NCBI GenBank assembly: GCA_951406725.2
Contig: OX597822.1
Coordinates: 101,432,001-101,496,000 of the forward strand
Source: Octopus vulgaris
Taxonomy: Eukaryota
Length of the DNA stretch: 64,000 nt
Direction: 5' to 3'
The notes beneath the pieces are model-generated. The model was given only the letters and a program-made list of their open reading frames with translations, was not told the origin of the DNA and did no database searches. The position numbers and the translations under genes were made by a program. Position 1 is the stretch's first letter; the number at the start of each line of letters is the position of its first letter. Positions 14,475 to 62,071 of the stretch are shown here, piece after piece.

Positions 14475-15770
14475 CAAAAAAGACGGAGAAGCACTTGGAG
14501 TTTCAAGATGCAACTGAAAATATAGATTATCATATTTCTGTGGAAGATATCACACATGTGATTAGCAGCTGCCCATAAATGTCATCATGGTACTACCCCC
14601 GTATGCGACAGGAGGTTGTTGCAAAATCGATGTACAATGAAAACCGGAAAAAGAGTGTCCTGGAAAAAATATAGGAAATCACCCTGTTATTGAATATCAA
14701 CACAAGGAGTGTAGGTGGAACATTCCCATCGAAACATCTATCAAGTGTAAGCATAACAGAGAAGATTGAAGCAATCCAGAGAAGATTCACAAAGAAGATC
14801 GTCTCTTTGCAACAGCTCAGCTACTGGGAAAGTTTGAAACAGCTAAGACTCTACTCCCTGGAGAGAAGACGGGAGAGGTATGCAGTAATATATGTATGGA
14901 AGATCCTGGAAGGAATTGTGCCAAATTTTGGCATTGTAAGCAACACCAATGCTAGAACGGGACGACACTGCATAGTGCCAAAGATCCCAGCAATGCCATC
15001 ACGCTTCAGGACCAGCTTCTGCAACAGCCTGGGTTTCAGGGGCCCATAGCTTTTTAATATTCTCCCAAAGAGTCTGAGGAACTTGCACAAAGTAGATGTA
15101 GTGGTTTTTAAATCAAAGCTGGACATCTTCCTGTCAGGAGTCCCAGATGAACCTACCTCACGGCAAGAGGTGCAAATGAGAGTAGCTGTATCAAACTCCA
15201 TTCTTCACCAAGTGCCACATATTAGACGAGGTTCGTCGCAATAACAGTGTAGCACAAAACGGCGGTGCATCAGCATGGCTGCAGCTCTGAGCTGAAACTA
15301 GAAAAAAAAAATGAATAACAGGCTGGATAGTATTGCTTTGGACAGGCAAGAAAATGCATGTGAAATCATAGACATCAGCTGTCCCGCTGATGTGAATATT
15401 TCTTTGAAAATTAAAGAGACTGAAGATAACTCTTGATAACTGCTTCGAAATATGTCCACCTATATCCAGATTACAAATTTACATTTACACTAATTATTGG
15501 AAATCTTGGTTTTGTAGGTAAATGCTCAACTGACAGTCTTAATAAGCTTGAATATTCAGAAAAAGAATTCAACCAACTCGTACATTAAAAACACAGTCTA
15601 TAAGTAGAACAGGCTACAAGTTAAAATGCGAAAGATTTTTCTCAAGTTTAAAATGTGACATTGTTTTCGTTATCTACTTTCCAAAGACGGAGCATTGTAT
15701 CTTTGTTAGAAAACAGTTACTTCCTCAGAGGACGAATTTAAATAATAAAAAAACTGAAGTGAACATTCTA
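14475..15770 (+). mobile_element. Second R4/Dong-like element, 3' relic (zinc knuckle + RLE), split by a CR1 fragment
   Basis: EDITHVISSCP..YY..MR.EVVAKSMYNE, then KCKHN|RLD...EIIDISCPADVNISLKIKE resuming across the CR1 insert. Confidence 0.65.
14760..15314 (+). mobile_element. CR1-clade LINE, 3' fragment with poly(A)
   Basis: EAIQRRFTK...YSLERRRERY..WKILEG. Same family as 28639-30368. TSD ATAACAG at 14753-14759 and 15315-15321. Confidence 0.9.
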
Positions 15771-28638: not shown

Positions 28639-28656
<18 letters not shown>

Positions 28657-30368
28657 TTCCTAGTTTCAGCTCAGAGCTGCGGCCATGCTGATGCACCGCC
28701 GTCTTGTGCTACACTGTTATTACGACGAACCTCGTCTAATATGTGGCACTTGGTGAAGAATGGAGTTTGATATAGCTACTCTCATTTGCACCTCCTGCCG
28801 TGAGGTAGGTTCTTCTGGGACTCTTGACAGGAAGATGTCCAGCTTTGATTTAAAAACCGCTACATCTACTTTGTGCAAGTTCCTCAGACTCTTTGGGAGA
28901 ATATTAAAAAGCTGTGGGCCCTTGAAACCCAGGCTGTTGCAGAAGCTGGTCCTTAAGCCTGATGGCATTGCTGGGATCTTTGGCACTATGCAGTGTCGTC
29001 CCGTTCTAGCATTGGTGTAGCTTACAATGCCAAAATTTGGCACAATTCCTTCCAGGATCTTCCAGACATATATTACTGCATACCTCTCCCTTCTTCTCTC
29101 CAGGGAGTAGAGTCTTAGCTGTTTCAACCTTTCCCAGTAGCTGAGCTGTTGCAAAGAGATGATCTTCTTTGTGAATCTTCTCTGGATTGCTTCAAGGTCC
29201 GCTGTTAATTTTACACTGGTGGGTGACCATAGCTGTGAGCAGTAATCCAGGCGACTGAGGACGAATGTCCGCCAGAGTACCAACATGGTTTCCTTATCCC
29301 TGGTTCTGAATGTTCTTAGGATCCACCCGGCCAGTCGTCTGCACTTTGTCGCCATCCTGGTAATGTGCACTTGGAAAGAGGTATCATCACTCATGTCGAT
29401 ACCCAGGTCTCTCACAGACTTAGGCTCTGGGATTGAAATTCCCTGTGGACCGGTGTATCCTGTAAGTTTAATATTCAGTTTTGGATGCTGGTAGCGCAGC
29501 GCCTGGAATTTTTCAGCATTAAACTGCATATTATTATCCTCAGCCCATCTGTAGATTGAGTCCAACTCCTGCTGCAGGTGTGCAACATCGCTGGGGTTCT
29601 GTATTTTCTGCGAGACTTTCGTATCGTCTGCATAGCTGGCCAGAGTGGCTATCCGGGCACTTGAGGGCATATCTAAGAGGGCCACTATAAAAAGCAGTGG
29701 TCTCAAGACAGTGCCCTGTGGAACACCGCTCACTATTTGTGTGTTCATAGAGGTGGCTCCATTAACCACTACTGCCTGACTCCTATCTTTCAGGAAGTCA
29801 TGCAACCACACTCCAAGTTTTCCAGCTATGCCGAGGTCACGTAGTTTGTGGCATATCATACCATGATCCACCTTGTCAAAAGCTTTTGCAAAATCAAGGT
29901 AGATTACGTTCACATTTGATTTGTTGAGTAACTGCCTCAACACCCAGTCATAATGCTGTAAGAGCTGGGTCAGGCAGCTCCTACCTGGTCGGAAACCATG
30001 CTGGGTATTACTCAGCAAGTTATTTTCCTCAAGGAATGCGATTAGTTTCTTTCTGACTATCCGTTCCATGACTTTGCTGATGTGTGAAGTCAGAGAGATA
30101 GGCCTATAGTTTTTTGCATCTGCTCTACTTCCCCCTTTATGTATTGGGCATATTATTCCCTCCTTCAGCTTGCTTGGCAGTTTGCCATTCGCAAGAAAGC
30201 TCTGGAAGAGAATCTTGAGGGGTTTTGCCAGGGTATGCTTACACGCTTTGAGGAGGATGGCTGGGAAACCGTCTGGACCAGCAGCTGAGTTTGTGTGCAC
30301 TTCATCTATGGCTAGTAGGACATCTTTTTCGCTAATGTCAATACATTCTATTGTAACCGCCTCGCTGG
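28639..30368 (-). mobile_element. CR1-clade LINE, 5'-truncated, with poly(A) tail
   Basis: T-run at 28639-28659, a short 3' UTR and an open RT ORF. Confidence 0.92.
28720..30300 (-). CDS. CR1-type reverse transcriptase (ORF2 3' part, open for 526 aa)
   Basis: AGPDG, NYRPISLTS, QHGFRPGRSC, YLDFAKAFDKV, SGVPQGTVL, YADDTK, RDLGI, SLERRR. Confidence 0.92.
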   Translation of the reverse strand: MHTNSAAGPDGFPAILLKACKHTLAKPLKILFQSFLANGKLPSKLKEGIICPIHKGGSRADAKNYRPISLTSHISKVMERIVRKKLIAFLEENNLLSNTQHGFRPGRSCLTQLLQHYDWVLRQLLNKSNVNVIYLDFAKAFDKVDHGMICHKLRDLGIAGKLGVWLHDFLKDRSQAVVVNGATSMNTQIVSGVPQGTVLRPLLFIVALLDMPSSARIATLASYADDTKVSQKIQNPSDVAHLQQELDSIYRWAEDNNMQFNAEKFQALRYQHPKLNIKLTGYTGPQGISIPEPKSVRDLGIDMSDDTSFQVHITRMATKCRRLAGWILRTFRTRDKETMLVLWRTFVLSRLDYCSQLWSPTSVKLTADLEAIQRRFTKKIISLQQLSYWERLKQLRLYSLERRRERYAVIYVWKILEGIVPNFGIVSYTNARTGRHCIVPKIPAMPSGLRTSFCNSLGFKGPQLFNILPKSLRNLHKVDVAVFKSKLDIFLSRVPEEPTSRQEVQMRVAISNSILHQVPHIRRGSS

Positions 30369-39185: not shown

Positions 39186-42070
39186 TGTTTCTTTATTAGC
39201 CACACAGGGCTGCACACAGATAGAACAAATTACAAGGTAGAGCTTTTCTTTTGAAGGTTTAAAAAAAATAAAAAAAAAAAAAAAGGAAGGGGGAGTTTCG
39301 ATCAAAAGGGATCGTAAAAGGAGAGAAAGAGGACAAAAAAAAGGGGGGTTAAAAAAAAAGGGGGAGAGGAAAAAAAAAAAATTTGATCAATAGGGATCGT
39401 TATCACAGAAATGTCAATATGAAGTGTAAAGGGGAGGACAGGTGAGGTTTACCCGTGGAAAGAAAAGCCTACGGAAAAGACCACGGTAACCTCGGTCAAT
39501 GGAGTCACATGTTATATTTCTTTTTTTTTTTTTGCTAATAAGCAACTCTCTGTTTTCAATTTCTGGGTTCATAGGATTATGCTCAAGGTGGCTTCGTCAT
39601 TCATACGTGCCATTCTTGCTACATTCACCCATCTTTTTTTAAAACATTCGCTAGACAAAACTTGCCTCTCTACTCTCACCTTCCTTTTCAAGTGGTACTT
39701 GAAGAAGTTGATGAGAGATTGACCAGAGAGGAAAGTGTTTGTCTCCAATCCTTTCAGACGCGTCCACCAGATACATTCTTTCGCCATAGCCACAAGGATG
39801 ATGAAAATAGCTCTTCCTTCCCGTTTGAAGGAGGGAGGCGTGACAATATTGACGATAGACTCAGCTGATAAACCGACTCGTCCCACACGTGACAGCAGTT
39901 GTTCGACACAAGCCCACAGGTCGGAAATTGTTGGACACTGCACGAGTGCGTGCAGAACGGTTTCGTCGCTCTGACCGCATCTCGGGCAGGTCGGCCCCGT
40001 GTTTCTCGAGCCGTGTCTGTAGAGCTTATCCCGAACGGGTAGCGCTTCTCGGTAGCACTGCCAGGCCAGGGATCTCTGGAAGTTGTCCATGGGCCCTGGC
40101 CCGAAAGTCGTCCTGAACAGGCGGGTCAGGTACTCCTCGTCGACGTCCAGGTTCGCCCCGAGCTCGTCGTCGTACCTCCCCTCCACTAAACCCCTATAGA
40201 ATGCTTTGGTTGTGTTGAAGTCACTCAAGGTCGACCCAGGACGGCAGAGTTGCTTGAGAGCAACGCGACACTGCGGTGCCATTCGCCCTTCTTCGGCCTC
40301 TTTTTGATCCACGACTGCAGTTCGGTCATGCAGACGAGCTGCGGGAAAGCGTGCCTCACAAACGGCGACCACACATGTTCACCGTCGTCTACATAGAGCC
40401 AGAGATGTCGCAGTCTCAGCGCGTGTCTGCGCATCATCAACCACGGCATGCCCAGCCCTCCTTTTAACGGGTGTTGACAGCAAATGGATCGCCTGACCAT
40501 CGGGACGCATCCTTTCCACAAGAAGCGAAAGAGAATGCGTTGTAGTTTGGTGATGGTAGGGTCGGGACAAGGTACGACGGTCAGGCGGTAGTAGATGACG
40601 GACGCGATGTACGTGTTCGCCACCTCCGCCCGACCTTTTAGGGACAGTTTCCTCTCGGCCCATTGCCGGGTGAGAGTGACCACCCTACTCGTTATCTCGT
40701 TCCAGTTCTTCTCCACTTGGAGGTCCGGACCAAACCAGACCCCAAGCAACTCAACCGGGCCGTCGGTCCAGCGTCCCACGACGGAGGCGCTGGTGGACGG
40801 CATGGGCTTGCTTCTCCAGGTGCCTAGTCGCAAGCCCACTGACTTTTCCCGGTTGATTTTCGCTCCTGTCACCGCTTCGTAGTTTTTCAGTGTCTCGCCG
40901 ACCTGCTCGATGTGCTCGTGGCTAGACACTATGACAGTGACGTCGTCCGCGTATGCAGACACGCTCGTCCCGCATCCCAGTTCTCGCGGGATGCCTCTCA
41001 AGGTTGCCAGCTTCCGCAATAATGGCTCGAGAGTCAATACGTATAGAAGCGACGAGAGGGGGCATCCCTGACGGACCGAACGTGCGATGTCGAAGGGTCC
41101 CGATAGATGTCCATTCACGCGAATTACCGAACGGATGCCTCTGTACAAAGCGGCTATCCAGCCGCGGAAGACGGGACCGAAGCCAGCCGCTCCGAGGACC
41201 GCCTCCAAGTATCGATGGTCCACCCTATCGAAAGCTTTCGATTGTTCCAAATTGATCAGCGCCCCACCCATGCCAGGTTCGTTAACTACCCTGTCTATGA
41301 TGTAGCGCATCAGGTCGAGGTTGTCATGGATGGTCCGGCCTGGCACGGCGCATGTTTGCGCCCTGTCGACCAGTTTCTCGATGACAAGCGCCAACCTCTT
41401 GGCTAGCACCTTGGCCAAAATTTTCAAGTCTGCATTAAGCAGAGTGATGGGCCTAAAGTTATCTATTACATTTCCCTTGTTTAGATCTTTCTTCAGCAGT
41501 GTTTCGGCTCCTCGGCTCACAAAACCAGGAATGCTCCCGTTTTGCTGCCAGTTGCAGTACACCACCGCCAAGAGATCTCCAAACAAGTCTGGCATACAAT
41601 TGTAAAGCTCGTAGGGTAGACCATCCAAACCCGGTGATTTGTCCCTCGAGCATTCTGCCATCGCTTCCTGCACTTCCGCCGCCGTGATGGCACCTTCGCA
41701 GCACCCTGCCTTTCTTGTCGAGAGTCGTGGCAGGCTATGTAGGTAGGCACTGAAGTCCACCCTACGTTTTTGCCCTCCACTCGTTCCGAACAGTCGGGCA
41801 AAATGCTGCTGAAAGGCCTCACACATTTTACTTGGCTCGAGCAATTCGCGCCCCTGTTCATCTACCAGGGACCGAATGGTGGCTTTGTTGCCCTGTTGCG
41901 CCTCTGCCACCCGGGCCTCTCTCGCGGCTCCAACACCTTTGTTCCTTAGAGCACGCATCCTAGCTCTGACAGCACATCCTTCGTGTTTGGCGTTGAAGTG
42001 TTGGTCGAGGGCCAACCTCGCCGCCAAAACGTCGGATGCGATGCCGCTTCTAATTGCCTCTTCTAGCTTC
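39186..42070 (-). mobile_element. L1/Tx1-clade LINE, 5'-truncated, inserted in (GATA)n
   Basis: GC-rich ORF2; the 3' end AATAAAGAAACAT runs straight into (ATCT)n. GATA arrays on both sides. Confidence 0.92.
39569..42070 (-). pseudogene. Tx1-type ORF2 (RT + C-terminal zinc finger), one frameshift near 40270
   Basis: KSPGLDGLPYELY, NFRPITLLNADLKILAK, KAFDRVDH, VRQGCPLS, SAYADDV, KLSLKGR; C-terminal CPRCGQSDETVLHALVQC. Confidence 0.9.
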
Positions 42071-42138
<68 letters not shown>

Positions 42139-42181
42139 TGATTGATAGATAGACAGACATATAGCTAGCTAGCTAGCTAGC

Positions 42182-50159: not shown

Positions 50160-51314
50160 ACAGATTTCTTCAATAGAGTTTTAAATATTAGTTGTTTTCA
50201 CCAAACTGCCAAAAATGAGTATTTTACCATCGAATAACAATTTCCGAGTTCCTTTTCACATTTTTATCAGTACACATTAAAATGCAAAGCATCTAATTAG
50301 CTGAAAGTCGAGATATTCTAATTGGTATATTGTTTACAATTCCTTTTATGATAGAATACTCTTTTACTATTTACTCTTTTACTCTTTTACTTGTTTCAGT
50401 CATTTGACTGAGGCCATGCTGGAGCACCGCCTTTAGTCGAGCAAATCGACCCCGGGACTTATTCTTTGTAAGCCCAGTACTTATTCTATCGATCTCTTTT
50501 GCCGAACCGCTAAGTGACGGGGACGTAAACACACCAGCATCGGTTGTCAAGCAATGCTAGGGGGACAAACACAGACACACAAACACACACATACATACAC
50601 ATATATATATATACATATATATATAAACATATATACGACAGGCTTCTTTTCAGTTTCCGTCTACCAAATCCACTCACAAGGCATTGGTCGGCCCGGGGCT
50701 ATAGCAGAAGACACTTGCCCAAGATGCCACGCAGTGGAACTAAACCCGGAACCATGTGGTTGGTTAGCAAGCTACTTACCACACTGCCACTCCTGCGCCT
50801 ATGTAGACGATTTTATGTAGACGATTTTATTATTTTATTGACATACCTTAGATTTTTGTTCCGTTTATGATATATTTCAAATAATCATGTATTCAAATAA
50901 AACGTTAGATCAAGAAAATTAACCTTACGGTAATTATTTTCTATAATCTCAGATAGTCCGATATTGTTGAAGAATTTGAATAGTAGTTTCTTACAGCTCT
51001 CTTTTTCTACTTTACTATGATTATCTAATATTAAGAGAGCGTCATTCCCATATAGATCGCTCCCTCCAACTTAGGAAACTAGGATTCCATTTAGAATACG
51101 ATATATATTTGGACAAGATCAGTAACTTGCGCTGAGTTGTTGCACCACATAGTTATGTCGGAACAGTCAGCCTTATGAGACCTTATCCATTGTTTATTAT
51201 CGAAATGTATAAGAGAGCAACGTGCAGCTAATGTTCAATATCCGGCCTAGATAAATTAGAATTGCGCATAGCAAAAATAAGAGCCTTATTATATAGTGCT
51301 GAATCAATAGTAGA
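50160..51314 (-). mobile_element. Older Hydra-type PLE, RT core (continues from 56731-57560)
   Basis: STIDSALYNKAL..AARCSLIHFDNKQWIR..DITM..NSAQVTDLV.IYI, NFLDLTFYL..YHK.NKNLRYV, IRISRLSA. Colinear with the ORF at 22682. Confidence 0.8.
50359..50800 (-). mobile_element. SINE family C nested in the PLE
   Basis: Full copy. Confidence 0.9.
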
Positions 51315-51349
51315 ACAAGAGCACTCAGTGAGTTCAAACACCACCGTCC

Positions 51350-53148
51350 TGACTTCTTTTATTAGGTACAAGGCCTCTTATAAACATGGGACAATACAAA
51401 GACAGAATAAACAATATAGTGGGATACACAAAACATATAAATGATGAAATTATGAATAAATGATGAGATGAAATGGCTTACCTGCCACCCCAAGCAGGCA
51501 GTTCCATTTTAGTGTTTATGTATCACACAGTTCATTAGTTTTTCCATCATTTTTATAAAACATCCTTATTTCAAAATTTTGAATATCTCACTTAATTTCC
51601 TTTGTATTAGATATTCCATTATGTCCTCAAATGACACCACCGGTGGCAACTCATTGGATCGAAACTGTAACTGTGATATCTCTATCATTTCCCCGAATAG
51701 TTCCTTCAACTTCTCACCTTTCTCTTTTACAAGCAAGCTTGCTTTAAATGCATCTTTGCACGGTTTAGGCGCTAACTTCACCCTAATTACATTTTTTCAT
51801 TTTAGTGATTCTTTTTCAATCTCCACATTTTTTTCTGTATTGAATCATAGTTCTTAATTGTTTTCCTTTCAGTGTTACTTTCTTATTTCCATCACTACTC
51901 TCTTCTGCTGTTGCTGGTGTTTCCCTCTCTTTCTTCTCTGCTTGTCTCTCACTCCATGCTGTCTTCCTTTTTTTATCCTGACCTTTTCCTGTTTCCTCCG
52001 TGCTAGTTGCTGGCATCGCTCTCTGTTTTCTCTCTTCTTCTTTCTCGTTTAATTTTGCCGACATCTCGTTTCTTTTCTGCTCGTTCGCTTTTCCTCCTTT
52101 TGGTAACACTTGTCTCTCCTCTACACATCCTTTTCTTTTCTTCATGGGGCTCTTTGGTGGTGAGGTCTCGTTTTCTTGTCTTTTCTTCCTCTTCACCGCT
52201 TTGTATCTTTCTTCTATATTTTCCTCTGGCCTCCGCTCTTCTACGCCTTGCACCTCTACCTCTCCTTCGTATTTCTGGGGACACTTAGCTTTGATGTGTC
52301 CCCGTACTCCACACTGAAAACATTTCGGAGGTCTTCCCTCCACTAGAACTCTTAGCTTCATCTCGTCCGGTAACGCTAAATTCTCTGCAATTTTGTGGAG
52401 GTCTGGTAAACTGATGTGGACCGTCACCTCACAGTTGTATCTCCAGCAGTTTACCGCCGTAATTCTTGTGATTTTAAGTATTTTACATTCCTCTTCAATT
52501 TCTGGGGACACTCTACCAATCCTCACTCTGGCCGCACGTTTGCCACAGTATGTTGGTAGCAGTACCCACTCGGTGGATCTCAAAGGCACAGTGGAGTGTT
52601 TTATCGCTGCTTGTACACTCGCGAAGCGTACCTCCACTGTGGCATATTTCTTCCCTATGGTGTAATACGTGGTTAGGTTTTTGATTTCTTTCAAGCATTC
52701 TTCGACTGCCTCTGCTGCAGCTATTTCAACTCTTTTTGTAGAGATAGACAGTATTCTGTATATTACTTCTCATTTTTCTGGGGTTTTTTTCCATAATTTC
52801 CTTGGGCGGCGTCAGCTTCAGACTGTCTCCCTCCTTTCGTAACAATTCATTACATTTCTTCAAATTTGTGTCGCTCAGTCGAATTTCTCTTACTTGCAAG
52901 ATATCTGCCATTAGATTATTTCCTGTTACTGCAGTGTAACTGCCTGCTGGAACTGGTTGACTTTCCATAATGTTGTTATTCACAACTTCACCCATAAATG
53001 AGGAAGAAAATAAAAATTCACAGGTAACAATAAATTAAACATTTCAGTGATACAACAATTAGGTGCGGCAGACCTTCAACAATTTAAAGAAGACTCACTT
53101 GAAGCGAACACACATCAAATGCAGCAGGGAATCAAATGACTCGATTAC
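51350..53148 (-). mobile_element. ORF1-only (half-LINE, HAL1-like) Tx1-type element, copy 1, about 1.8 kb
   Basis: ORF1 in three frames (52995-52726, 52694-51816, 51781-51566) with SYTAV and CFQCGVRGHIKAKC. AATAAA at 51358-51363; no ORF2. 13-bp flanking direct repeat AACACCACCGTCC. Confidence 0.8.
51566..52995 (-). pseudogene. LINE ORF1 (gag-like, CCHC zinc knuckle, K/E-rich region), frameshifted
   Basis: RVRIGRVSPEI, RVLVEGRPPKCFQCGVRGHIKAKCP (CX2CX4HX4C). Confidence 0.8.
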
Positions 53149-53450
53149 AACACCACCGTCCATATTTCTTTTATTGAGCACATGCTTCTTATAGAGAGGG
53201 GACAATAAAATGACATACAAAACAATACAATGGGGTTCATAAAAGCACATATCGTATGAAATTAAGGATACAATGAAAAATTAGGATGGGGCGACTTAAC
53301 CTGCGCCCCCCCCCCCATAAGCAGGTAGTTTCATTTTCCTGTTTTTATATAACCTTTTACTAACAGTTCAATATTCTGTTTTGTACGAGCAGGTTTTCCC
53401 TTTTCTTAAAAAATTACTCTCACTAATTATTCAGTTTTTATCACACAGTT

Positions 53451-53871
53451 ACTCTTTTACTCTTTACTCTTTACTCTTTTACTTGTTTCAGTCATTTGAC
53501 TGCGGCCATGCTGGAGCACCGCCTTTAATCGAGCAACTCGACTCCGGGACTTATTCTTTTGTAAGCCCAGTACTTATTCTATCGGTCTCTTTTGCCGAAC
53601 CGCTAAGTGACGGGGACGTAAACACATCAGCATCGGTTGTCAAGCAATGCTAGGGGGACAAACACAGACACACAAACATGCACACACACATACATATATA
53701 TATACATATACGACGAGCTTCTTTCAGTTTCCGTCTACCAAATCCACTCACAAGGCATTGGTCGGCCCGAGGCTATAGTAAAAGACACTTGCCCAAGGTG
53801 CCACGCAGTGGGACTGAACCCGGAACCATGTGGTTCACAAGCAAGCTACTTACCACACAGCCACTCCTGCG
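53451..53871 (-). mobile_element. SINE family C nested in ORF1-only copy 2
   Basis: Full copy; CAGTT repeated at the flanks. Confidence 0.9.
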
Positions 53872-54495
53872 CAGTTCATAATTTTTTTCCATCATTTTTA
53901 TAAAACATCCTTATTTCAAAATTTTGAATATCTCACTTAATTTCCTTTGTATTAGACATTCCATTATGTCCTCAAATGACACACCACCGGTGGCAACTCA
54001 TTGGATCGAAACTGTAACTGGGATATCTCTATCATTTCCCCCGAATAGTTCCTTCAACTTCTCACCTTTCTCTTTTACAAGCAAGCTTGCTTTAAATGCA
54101 TCTTTGCACGGTTTAGGCGCTAACTTCACACTCATTTACACCAAATACTCCGTTAAATGTTCGAATGCCACCACCGGCGGCAATTCATCAAAGCGATGTA
54201 CACCGATGTCACTTCTAACATTTCAAACTTTCTCTTCTCCCTCTCTTTCCAGCAGATCACCTTTCAAACCTACATTGTTCTCGTTGGGTGACAATTAAAT
54301 TCTATTTACGTTCTTCTTTTTCGCAATCTCTTTTTGTATCATATTTCTTAATTGTTTTCCTTTCGGTGTCTCTCTCTGTTTTTCTTCACCAATCTCTTCT
54401 ACTGTTGCTGGTATTCTTATCTCTGTATGTCTGTCATTATTTGTTGCTATCGTTTCTCTTTCATTTTCCTTTTTCTTCTGTACTTTCTCCACCGT

Positions 54496-55206
54496 ACATT
54501 ATTTACATTATTTACAATTGACAGATATTTGTCCTCATTTTGTTTGTTGTTAACACAACGTTTCTGCTGATATACCCTCCAGCCTTCATTAGGTGTCTTG
54601 GGTAAATTTCGTACATGGGTTCTCATTCCTAAGGTATTTTTCGATGTTGTTGTTGTTATTATTACTATTGAGTGAGAGAGCAGTGCATGCCATCAAAGTG
54701 ACACTGGGGTAAAATATACGAAGCCCAGTATACCCATCATGACTACCCGTCTGATAAGGGTACACTAGGCACATGCATCACAACCATATGTGTGCGACAT
54801 GGTGATCTCATATCAAAATAAACAGCACATGACCTTGCAGGTGGGGCCCAGTTAGAATTTTCATCAGGTCGAGTAACCCATCCCACTCGAAAGGTCCCTG
54901 AATAAGGGTTGTTTAAGGATGTTGAACGAAACACCCATGTTTCCAGAGGTGAATTATTCAAACCCCAAAGAATCCCTCTCAACACGTGGCTATGATGCTC
55001 CCCCACTAATTTTGCTCGTGATCAGAGATGCACATATCGTCAGCCACTAAGGGACATGCTCAACTGGTTAAAGTCAAACAACTGACAAGCAAATCTGTGG
55101 TATTGAGCAGAATATTTGCTGTAGCCCATCTTTTATACCAAGACAAAACAATGTACATGATAACACTTCCAATCAGTTAAGATCAGAAGCCATGAGAGCC
55201 ACTGCC

Positions 55207-55269
<63 letters not shown>

Positions 55270-55360
55270 CATTATGATTATTATTCAGATCACTGCCTGG
55301 AATCGAACTCGAAATCTTGGGGTTAGGAGCCCGCGCTCTTAACCACTACGCCATATGCCC
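54496..55360 (-). mobile_element. tRNA-head + hammerhead SINE, left arm of the inverted dimer
   Basis: Head GGGCATATGGCGTAGTGGTTAAG...GAGTTCGATTCC, then (AAT)n and a mutated hammerhead CTAATGA...GAAACGTT at 54553-54596. Confidence 0.85.
54669..55208 (-). mobile_element. ~540-bp non-coding retro-like insert in the (AAT)n tract of the left arm
   Basis: Absent from the right arm and flanked by (ATT)n on both sides. On the minus strand it ends ...CTCTCACTCAATAGTAATAAT. R4/Dong-dependent mobility is inferred only. Confidence 0.65.
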
Positions 55361-55362
55361 GG

Positions 55363-55643
55363 GGGCATATGGCGTAGTAGCATATGGCTACTAACCCCAA
55401 GATTCCGAGTTCGATTCCAGGCAATGACCTGAATAATAATAATTATAACAATAATAACAACATCGAAAAATACCTTAGGAATGAGAACCAAGGTTCAAAA
55501 TATCCCCAAGACACCTGATGAAGGCTGGAGGGTATACCAGCCGAAACGTTGTGTTAACAACAAACAAGATGAGGACAAATATCCGTCAATCGTAAATAAT
55601 GTAAATAATGCACGTAATTCCACACCTCGTAAATATAGAACTG
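55363..55643 (+). mobile_element. tRNA-head + hammerhead SINE, right arm (about 280 bp)
   Basis: GGGCATATGGCGTAG..GAGTTCGATTCC..(AAT)n..hammerhead..AAATATAGAACTG. Confidence 0.85.
55510..55555 (+). ncRNA. Minimal type I hammerhead ribozyme (PLE-type)
   Basis: GACAC-CTGATGA-A-GGCTGG(agggtata)CCAGCC-GAAA-CG-TT-GTGTT. Palindromic AACGTT replaces stem III. Confidence 0.8.
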
Positions 55644-55805
55644 TTTCTCCTCCGTGGTAGTTGTTGGTAACGGTCTCTGTTTTCTTTCTTCGACTTTGTC
55701 ACTTTTGTTGGCCTTTCATTCTTTTCTCTGCTCGTCCCCTTTTCCTTGTTTCACGCTCTGCGTCTCCTCTCCATTTCCTTTTCTTTTCTTCCTAGGACTT
55801 TTTGG

Positions 55806-56251
55806 GGATCTTTTCGGTTTGAACGGCAGTTTTTTTCTAGCGGTGTCATATGAAATTGTCACCCATAATTATGACCCTAGTATCGATCTATTGCATTTCA
55901 ATCTGTTTTAGGGTTAGGGTTAGTTAGGGTTAGGGTTAGGGTTAGGGGTGGGGGGAAGGGTATCTTTTTTTCTTCAGAAATGTAAATAAACCCAATCTGT
56001 TTCTTAAACGAAGGACATTTTCATACGGCACAGAATGCTTTTTTTTTTTACCTCAATAGATGTCATTGATTGGTTGAAATTGCAGAAATTGAAGAAAAAA
56101 ACAACAAATATCTTACAAACTATAGAATTTTCTCAATAAAGCCAAGAGAAAAAGATGTTTTATAAACACATTCTACCAGTATACGAAGTTTAAAAGTGTT
56201 TAGTTACGTGGAAATTATTTTAAAAAACTGCCGTTCAAACCGAAAAGATCC
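55806..56251. mobile_element. MITE with internal (TTAGGG)n, second copy
   Basis: Perfect 30-bp TIRs; 8-bp TSD CTTTTTGG at 55798-55805 and 56252-56259. Confidence 0.92.
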
Positions 56252-56730
56252 CTTTTTGGTGGTGAGTTCACGTTACTCTTCTTCATCTTCACCACTGTGT
56301 ACTGTGTACTTCCATACTTTGATCCTCTACGGTTGAAACCTCTTCTTCTTGTTATTTCTCTATCTCCTCGTCTTCATGTTTCTCGGGACACTTCGCTTTC
56401 ATGTGCCCCCGTACTCCACACTGAAAGCAAATAGGAGGTCTTCCTTCCACCATGACTCTTAACTTCGCTTCGTCAGGCAAAACTAGTTTTTCTGTGATTT
56501 TATGAAGGTCTGGCAAACTAATGTGGACCGTCACCTCAAAGCCGTACCCCAGCAGTTTACCTCCGTAGTTCTTGTGATTTTAAGTATTTTAGTTTCCTCT
56601 TCTGTATTATAGAGGGTGGCTGCCACCAGCCACACCCCGTCAATTATCTTAAGATATCTTGTCCACGGATAAACAAGCAAACAAAGAAAACGACTGAAAA
56701 CAACACCTCCGCTTTAGCGAAGGCGGACGT

Positions 56731-57560
56731 AATAATAATTCCATATATCAAGTTGCAAAAATTTGCCCCCATTTTTCTTTGATCTAATGAACCATCCAAC
56801 GTCCTCTAGTGTGCTTGACAGCAGTGCAAGTCCAATCTTAGGTCTAAGAGTCGGTAGTATTCTACCAATAATATTTTTACTAATCCTACACATATCCGAG
56901 AAAGGCATGTTAGTCTAACGGTTGGATCGCTATCAAAATATATTTTGTGGTCCTTTGAATTAATTCCAAGTTTTTTTTTTGGGGGGGGGGGGGCACATGG
57001 CTAGGTTCTATTATTTCTAGTCCAGTAACTAATTCAAATCGCTCACTATTTAAACTGATTAATGTATCATTAGGTACACGTTTATATTTACTACAAAGTT
57101 CTTCCGTAATTAGTTTTTACAGCGTGTGGTAAGAGCAATGCACAAATTCCCAGTTTTATCCTCCGTCGCTAAGATCTCTGGAGCCTTTTCAAATTCCAGT
57201 AATTTTCTCTGTTTTTTTTTTCTGGTATTGTTATGCCTTCTAGGATATTTCCTAAATTTTATATCTTTAATGATTTTATATTGTTCCACATCAAAGGATG
57301 ATTTTATATTGTTCCACATCAAAGGGCGCCAGGTGTCGATCGTATGGTGAATTGCTCAGGGATTTAAATTCACGATTTAGTGCATCTTCGAATTCTTGAG
57401 AACTTCTACATTTCTTGTCGAAGAAGAACGCTTTCCAGCGCTTCGAGTAAAGGAAGCTGAATTCTCCAACAGTTGCCCTACGTATTCCATTTGCTAGGTA
57501 TAGGTATATTCCCTTAAGTAAAACGTCAAGTGCGATCTTTTCCGTTTTTCAAGCGCGCTT
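56731..57560 (-). mobile_element. Older Hydra-type PLE, N-terminal part
   Basis: KRWKAFFF, EFKS..SP...LAPFD, IKDIKFRK, EDKTGNL, SDMCRISKNII, GWF..KFLQLDIWNYY. Confidence 0.8.

Positions 57561-61461: not shown

Positions 61462-62071
<610 letters not shown>

Follow-up and report, generated by a model that had tools for sequence, protein, structure and literature searches.

How does a retroelement that encodes neither endonuclease nor reverse transcriptase (RT) come to lie, stacked with a relative, at one fixed site inside another transposon? The question is raised by a locus of Octopus vulgaris within a 64,000-nucleotide stretch of DNA (assembly GCA_951406725.2, contig OX597822.1, positions 101,432,001 to 101,496,000 of the forward strand), termed here the window, whose numbering we use throughout. 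An earlier note, made from the letters alone, had described a 1.8-kb element with a 5' untranslated region (UTR), a first open reading frame (ORF1) encoding a CCHC motif, a 3' UTR and AATAAA, bounded on both sides by a short motif and accompanied by a diverged relative. Our analysis places both copies in a multi-copy, protein-coding, ORF1-only family found at a fixed site in a short repeat resembling DINE-1/HINE transposons. Judged by their sequences, the elements are derivatives of L1/Tx1-type long interspersed elements (LINEs), for which we use the term half-LINEs, and it is quite likely that they were copied by target-primed reverse transcription with the endonuclease and RT of a complete LINE acting in trans.

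The better preserved member, copy 1 (51350-53148, minus strand, as are all features below unless stated), is a full-length half-LINE of 1799 bp, assigned to subfamily A1 by genome comparison and a tree of ORF1 sequences. A 5' UTR of 153 nt (52996-53148, from reading of the sequence) precedes ORF1 (51566-52995, with its ATG at 52995), which is followed by a 3' UTR of 216 nt (51350-51565) whose AATAAA (51358-51363) stands 8 nt short of the element end; the tail is without poly(A), and its form matches that of complete L1/Tx1-type LINEs of the genome. Frameshifts near 52760-52790, a deletion within the frame and a stop at 51816 disrupt ORF1. Its product is predicted to have a pair of RRM-like domains, a CCHC knuckle encoded at about 52281-52322 (for zf-CCHC, Pfam gives E 0.0012, just under the cut-off) and a basic tail. 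No endonuclease or RT match was found within copy 1 or copy 2, so that the anatomy first described for copy 1 stands. So does its framing: the 13-mer AACACCACCGTCC has two exact matches only, at 51337-51349 and 53149-53161, where shuffled sequence yields a mean of 0.56 matches with up to 2 mismatches. The outer target-site copy (51337-51349), at the 3' end of copy 1, reads GGACGGTGGTGTT, the usual form across copies being GGACGTTGGTGTT; the inner one (53149-53161), where copy 2 ends at its 3' side and copy 1 starts at its 5' side, has the same private variant. Copy 1 has none of the marks of RNA editing (A>G 15, T>C 10, G>A 18), and among 88 RNA reads on the element none is 95% alike. A contig under a second species label covers 51250-51450, from the left flank through host end and motif into the tail, so that the insertion is probably older than the split from that species.

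Copy 2 (53162-56645) is an ORF1-only half-LINE of another subfamily, closest to copies elsewhere in the genome (L013, L017, L024; 84-89%), with its 5' third deleted. Its own pieces (about 53162-53449, 54141-54493, 55644-55805 and 56252-56645) are separated by three insertions, and its identity to copy 1 is 70-76% in three common pieces and 83% in a short fourth, as expected of the diverged relative, ending at the same motif, that had been proposed. The 5' third and the 5' motif of this copy went in a single deletion (56645/56647), which also took roughly 250 bp of the host.

The host is a short repeat of about 385 bp. Its 3' end, which ends ...GTGCTCTTGTT, lies at 51314-51336 (blastn 85% to a natural host copy, L134; 12 empty sites compared), with 15 nt of the end, including the 3' subterminal inverted repeat, missing beside copy 1; its 5' part lies at 56647-56735 (blastn 76-86% to host copies), where a terminal hairpin that includes the 5' subterminal repeat is followed by (GTTT)n. 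The insertion site is 38 nt before the host 3' end, in the DINE-1 convention with the host on the minus strand. The earlier note had put the copy 2 junction about 35 bp from the host 5' end; the junction near a host end is that of copy 1, and the end is the 3' one. Subterminal inverted repeats (ACCTCCGCC near both ends, with a common core of 9 bp), a nearby 5' inverted repeat and a microsatellite, the features by which DINE-1/HINE elements are recognised, are all present, and 12 empty host copies have T-rich ends or flanks. The 5' hairpin folds with a z score of -5.1 in host copy L134 and -1.9 in the window copy; at the 3' end a 6-bp stem can be seen by eye, and the fold of one copy is no better than shuffles (z -0.1). 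DINE-1/HINE elements are non-autonomous Helentrons (PMC4067079). The host resembles them in its subterminal inverted repeats, nearby 5' inverted repeat, microsatellite, T-rich ends and tandem copies, and differs in the 9-bp core common to its subterminal repeats and in its weak 3' hairpin (PMC4067079). One head-to-tail join of two host repeats (L125:1150-1200) has the form that rolling-circle copying would give. The empty site has 677 exact matches in the genome, and only 7 of 23 matches to the 5' junction pattern are true insertions, the remainder being mutated empty sites; since true junctions are so few against this number of empty sites, occupied host copies amount to no more than a few percent.

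Searching the genome at the DNA level yielded 73 pieces, from 40 scored of 512 candidates. Host and motif adjoin one or both ends of the element in 23 of the best 30 loci; another 6 lie at other fixed sites and 1 is ambiguous. The expectation that most copies would abut the motif in the same host is borne out by these 23 of 30, and the note's picture of a multi-copy ORF1-only family in a HINE-like host with it; the family is not confined to this host, six copies lying at other sites. The exact 3' junction pattern has 21 matches and its reversed control 0, and both junctions are present at 22 loci, with host ends intact around many insertions. Five lineages, A (that of the window), B, C, D and E, differ in 5' ends, tails and ORF1s and all end at one 13-mer. 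They occur in mixed stacks (A-A-B at L190, A-A then D at L164) as well as uniform ones (A-A-A at L189, B-B-B at L166). In a tree of 174 ORF1 copies, all of them aligned over at least 150 codons, the clade of A, D and E holds no complete element after correction of the L154_3507 label; automatic labelling had called this copy and L294_282 complete, wrongly, both being ORF1-only copies that precede another element. As B and C lie apart in the tree, ORF1-only elements arose more than once. Subfamily A has no near-identical ORF1 pairs, its terminal branches being 0.06 or more. An ORF1 protein search adds 40 examined loci (148 scored), of which 39 have no ORF2 and the fortieth is a chimera. Random flanks, ORF2-bearing copies, or local tandem duplication followed by decay were named in the earlier note as grounds for dropping its view, and none of these holds. 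Two further observations concern the family at large. Lineage D (L164:6242-6582, L222, L334, L335) starts with about 17 nt of host sequence downstream of the site, as if taken from an older insertion slightly downstream; and a much younger ORF1-only subfamily, with a within-group synonymous divergence (dS) of 0.06, occupies another site (L218, L219, L223, L264, L269, L274).

The L1-Tx1 group is reported to have expanded in coleoids (PMC8967140). Half-LINE ORF1 is 28-39% identical (best E 3e-47) to ORF1 of complete two-ORF LINEs of this genome, whose ORF2 matches Exo_endo_phos, RVT_1 and zf-RVT. The architecture of these parent LINEs, two ORFs with an APE-type endonuclease, RT and a C-terminal zinc-binding region, is common to the wider L1 group and not diagnostic of Tx1; they also prefer multi-copy targets. 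The clade name Tx1 is a label that we assume for them, the database matches being unnamed. Modelled ORF1 of a relative (predicted local distance difference test score, pLDDT, 77) resembles tandem-RRM RNA-binding proteins (best E 4e-5) and has a CCHC knuckle at its end; the only relatives of ORF1 in databases are labelled Octopus bimaculoides. Between subfamilies, net ratios of nonsynonymous to synonymous substitution (dN/dS) are 0.07-0.40, mostly 0.1-0.2, so that the check on ORF1 proposed at the outset reveals purifying selection. Target duplications together with selection on ORF1 indicate that the ORF1-only elements spread as such.

These features can be assembled into a mechanism. The element RNA would make its own ORF1 protein, which would bind that RNA in cis, while a helper ORF2 protein would recognise the tail form common to LINEs and half elements. 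A first nick at the start of the 13-mer would permit copying of the RNA, and a second nick 13 nt further on would duplicate the site; each insertion would so rebuild the site, with the result that later copies stack. At other sites, subfamily-A copies directly precede ORF2-bearing LINEs and have the target duplication in common with them (L154, L332), and these stacks are the best evidence that ORF2 may be borrowed. In the least certain step, a TATA-type promoter of the host would drive the element from the 13-mer, and in subfamily A a TATA box may be recreated by the tail, 32-33 nt ahead of the following site. That the site is the start of such a host promoter, with element RNA beginning in the host 13-mer, we regard as nearly evenly balanced, leaning slightly to the negative.

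The promoter step arose from an observation by eye that many sites start about 31 nt past a TATA box. Among 44 junctions picked by eye and reduced to one entry per target type (22 types), 16 of 22 have a TATAWAW, allowing one mismatch, whose start lies between -36 and -27 relative to the duplication (background 0.17), and 6 of 22 have it exactly (background 0.04); automatic calls of target-site duplications (TSDs) included false ones. Positive types comprise 9 of 10 used by half elements and 8 of 13 used by complete LINEs, one type being in both, and 5 of 7 among types from loci collected after the observation by eye. In the host itself, a box, TTTAAAA, stands at -31 (-32 in one) in all seven of the junctions listed. 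TATAAG or a similar sequence occurs in many A tails, 32-35 nt ahead of the following site, and is absent from most tails of B and C. In 5' copies of the 13-mer, 15.9% of letters depart from the usual form (32 junctions), and in 3' and internal ones 6.3% (27 junctions; p 3e-5), part of the 3' set having been chosen with a mismatch limit. Five of ten A3 copies have one 13-mer variant in common, and A3 copies start with a second, decayed motif copy. The 5' motif copies look partly RNA-derived; transcripts starting at the motif would fit both their excess divergence and the A3 variant and second motif, which suggests promoter borrowing. A young complete LINE family (L297-L316) inserts at GTATTTCGTC in the head of a short interspersed element (SINE), and four of its copies at unrelated sites themselves begin, within the duplication, with that SINE head as a captured leader; we count this as support for promoter borrowing. 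The TATA-like box was present in none of five SINE-head junctions, which lie outside the 22-type count.

Several results weigh against trans-mobilisation at this site or against the promoter step. An autonomous LINE with the same target, which the earlier note expected, was sought and not found: same-strand Tx1-type ORF2 lies within 3.5 kb upstream in 0 of 49 3' junctions at the HINE site and within 1.5 kb in 0 of 2 further ones (51 junctions, with three additional listed junctions left out). Nor did a complete LINE at this site emerge from junction patterns, from a search of the zf-RVT family (150 of 25,803 candidates scored, 3' ends read in the best 30) or from the ORF1 search. The single copy in which ORF2 sequence follows ORF1 (L209) looked like a helper; we rejected it, since it proved to be chimeric, joined to a young family with no relation to it. 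Values of dN/dS within subfamilies are 0.4-0.6 in old copies, below what pure decay would give, so that alignment bias may lower all values somewhat. For the promoter, the -27 to -36 window was set after looking at the data, and a test fixed beforehand found the box at 2 of 6 called duplications, one more being borderline, which is not significant (20 of its 26 loci had no duplication call). The reverse-complement control of the scan, at 0.39, is well above background; the host box is one mismatch from the TATA consensus; starts of RNA reads from a related species label do not accumulate within the host repeat; and the private variant common to both 13-mers around copy 1 indicates that both came from the target. 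Among records listed as RNA we found none holding the host repeat. At four other loci (L176, L145, L149, L160) ORF1 or ORF2 pieces lie far upstream and are unrelated to the junction. The helper of the HINE site is probably extinct or has relaxed specificity.

What, then, selects the site? It may be chosen solely by a strictly sequence-specific helper endonuclease of the Tx1L type, now extinct, with the TATA-like box there by chance and the elements carrying their own promoter; we hold this to be a real contender, if one that more probably fails. A single enzyme simply explains five lineages at the same base, it sits well with the weak outcome of the prefixed TATA test (2/6) and with the lack of an RNA start peak, and endonuclease is held mainly to set target choice (Kojima 2015, PMC4494074). 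It leaves unexplained the excess divergence of 5' motif copies, and it is at odds with members of one subfamily at unrelated sequences (6/30 best copies) and with a young complete family at varied targets, three of them preceded at -30 to -32 by a TATA-like box (L084, L278, L295). In another reading, the ORF1-only Tx1-type elements would be an old and lasting radiation that locates its sites by promoter position and not by sequence: ORF1, maintained by selection, would tether the borrowed endonuclease and RT to TATA-bound transcription complexes on other repeats, the nick would fall at the transcription start, the element would be transcribed there, and the A tail would rebuild a TATA so that copies promote the next, as in HeT-A, at internal sites. 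In this strong form the proposal seems to us unlikely. A looser helper would suffice if transcripts reached a few bases into the 3' duplication, paired with the nicked target and so primed their own copying. The lack of poly(A), the position of AATAAA just 8-14 nt before the junction, and the need of R1Bm for downstream target sequence in accurate reverse transcription (PMC7265360) speak for such an RNA memory of the target, but it would require five separate arrivals at the same base, one for every lineage, and we think the idea improbable.

Two explanations dispense with repeated insertion. A few insertions into the host might have been multiplied by rolling-circle transposition of the host, in keeping with host ends that remain intact at the 22 loci with both junctions and with seven loci that have one motif variant and slightly higher host similarity (0.88 vs 0.85); yet lineages, tails and stack orders differ between loci, subfamily A lacks near-identical ORF1 pairs, and the same families lie at other targets too, which makes hitchhiking very improbable. 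Scarcely any credence attaches to the remaining idea, that one complete LINE lost its ORF2 here, was duplicated locally and then decayed. Its one attraction is a 265-bp patch in copy 2 (53872-54140), 96% identical to copy 1 at 51528-51791, which sequence comparison identifies as a later local transfer. Elsewhere the copies are 70-76% alike and each is nearer to relatives in other parts of the genome (81-89%), the same ORF1-to-tail join recurs genome-wide, and copy 2 belongs to another subfamily, so that, the patch apart, local duplication is excluded. Target-primed copying of the half-LINEs with a borrowed ORF2 remains the reading that we prefer.

Other repeats surround these elements. Copy 2 was interrupted by a common interspersed repeat of about 420 bp (53450-53871; at least seven further copies in the window), a composite insertion that contains a nested repeat and whose inverted ends measure 177 bp (54494-55643), and an insertion resembling a miniature inverted-repeat transposable element, with 30-bp terminal inverted repeats (55806-56251), none of the three with an assigned strand and the last two delimited by sequence comparison. 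At 39590-42147 (minus strand) lies a 5'-truncated L1/Tx1-type ORF2, 76% identical to ORF2 of a LINE elsewhere (L092), with 3' UTR and tail; (CTAT)n microsatellite on both sides marks a microsatellite-targeting lineage. Fragments at 29494-30351 and 61613-61999 are of other LINE clades, 25% identical to Tx1-type ORF2, and have what we presume to be an RTE-like C-terminus. An inverted repeat pair of 575 nt (14744-15318 and 28643-29217) is 95% complementary across 13.3 kb. Elsewhere in the genome, near-identical complete LINEs with intact ORFs form 5.36-kb head-to-tail arrays at GGAAGCGACACCTACTG (L082, L083, L280-L284), and from their sequences were likely active recently. Half elements and complete LINEs also occur at common sites before CTGATGA...GAAAC in Penelope-like repeats (L202, L230, L232, L233, L227, L267, L097, L075), with lineages 4-7 nt apart in position; we take the motif to be hammerhead-like, and Rfam on 9 loci gave only microsatellite noise.

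Non-autonomous LINEs that retain ORF1 include HAL1 (L1), HeT-A (Jockey) and Ag-Sponge (CR1), and no Tx1-derived member is among those named in the parts available of the two papers (PMC5786205, PMC5753468). The half-LINEs are like them in having 5' UTR, ORF1 and 3' tail and no ORF2, and in several independent origins, as stated for HAL1; they are unlike them in a site fixed in another transposon and in the lack of poly(A). HAL1 proper is mammalian and L1-derived (PMC5753468, PMC5786205), whereas the half-LINE has a CCHC knuckle and relatives labelled only Octopus. HeT-A is likewise ORF1-only, in head-to-tail arrays and with ORF1 under negative selection, but it adds to Drosophila chromosome ends, where half-LINEs insert internally with a 13-bp duplication, and the 3' end of one HeT-A copy helps promote the next, a role only suggested for the half-LINE 3' end (PMC5537684).

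The three-tier arrangement, which the earlier note had thought undescribed, has a precedent in Mariner-N4_AMi, Tx1-Mar and SINEU-3, where tandem copies sandwich the TSD; Tx1L in Tx1D and Tx1-9_AMi in Harbinger are further Tx1 elements within transposons (PMC4494074). Host transposon, dependent element and tandem copies around the TSD recur here. SINEU, for which transcription from the host was proposed, codes for no protein, unlike the half-LINEs; the hosts of Tx1-Mar, Tx1L and Tx1-9_AMi are cut-and-paste elements, whereas the octopus host is HINE-like; and the helper is known in the Tx1-Mar system and was not found at the HINE site (PMC4494074). Of Dictyostelium TRE5-A.1 and TRE5-A.2, the latter is, like the half-LINEs, a derivative that retains ORF1, and it is moved in trans, as the half-LINEs probably are (PMC3159450). 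TRE5-A position is set relative to a promoter complex, ORF1 binding TFIIIB subunits in vitro, at about 50 bp upstream of tRNA genes, whereas the half-LINE site is a fixed base ~31 nt downstream of a TATA-like box (PMC3159450). The literature covered yielded no example of a Tx1 element reduced to ORF1, of a Helentron that serves as a target for Tx1 or any other LINE, or of LINE insertion spaced from a TATA box; Repbase, Bao and Jurka 2010 and supplements lay outside that scope and may hold such cases.

With this family, the few non-autonomous LINEs known to code for protein gain a Tx1-type member, and a HINE-like repeat joins the sequences known as LINE targets. Because its ORF1 is under selection without an ORF2, and because sister subfamilies occupy different fixed sites, it offers a direct test of what sets target choice: ORF1, the RNA ends or the endonuclease. 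If the TATA spacing does reflect true targeting, these elements would be to LINEs what promoter-targeted elements are among other retrotransposons, with starts of the polymerase II type as their sites.

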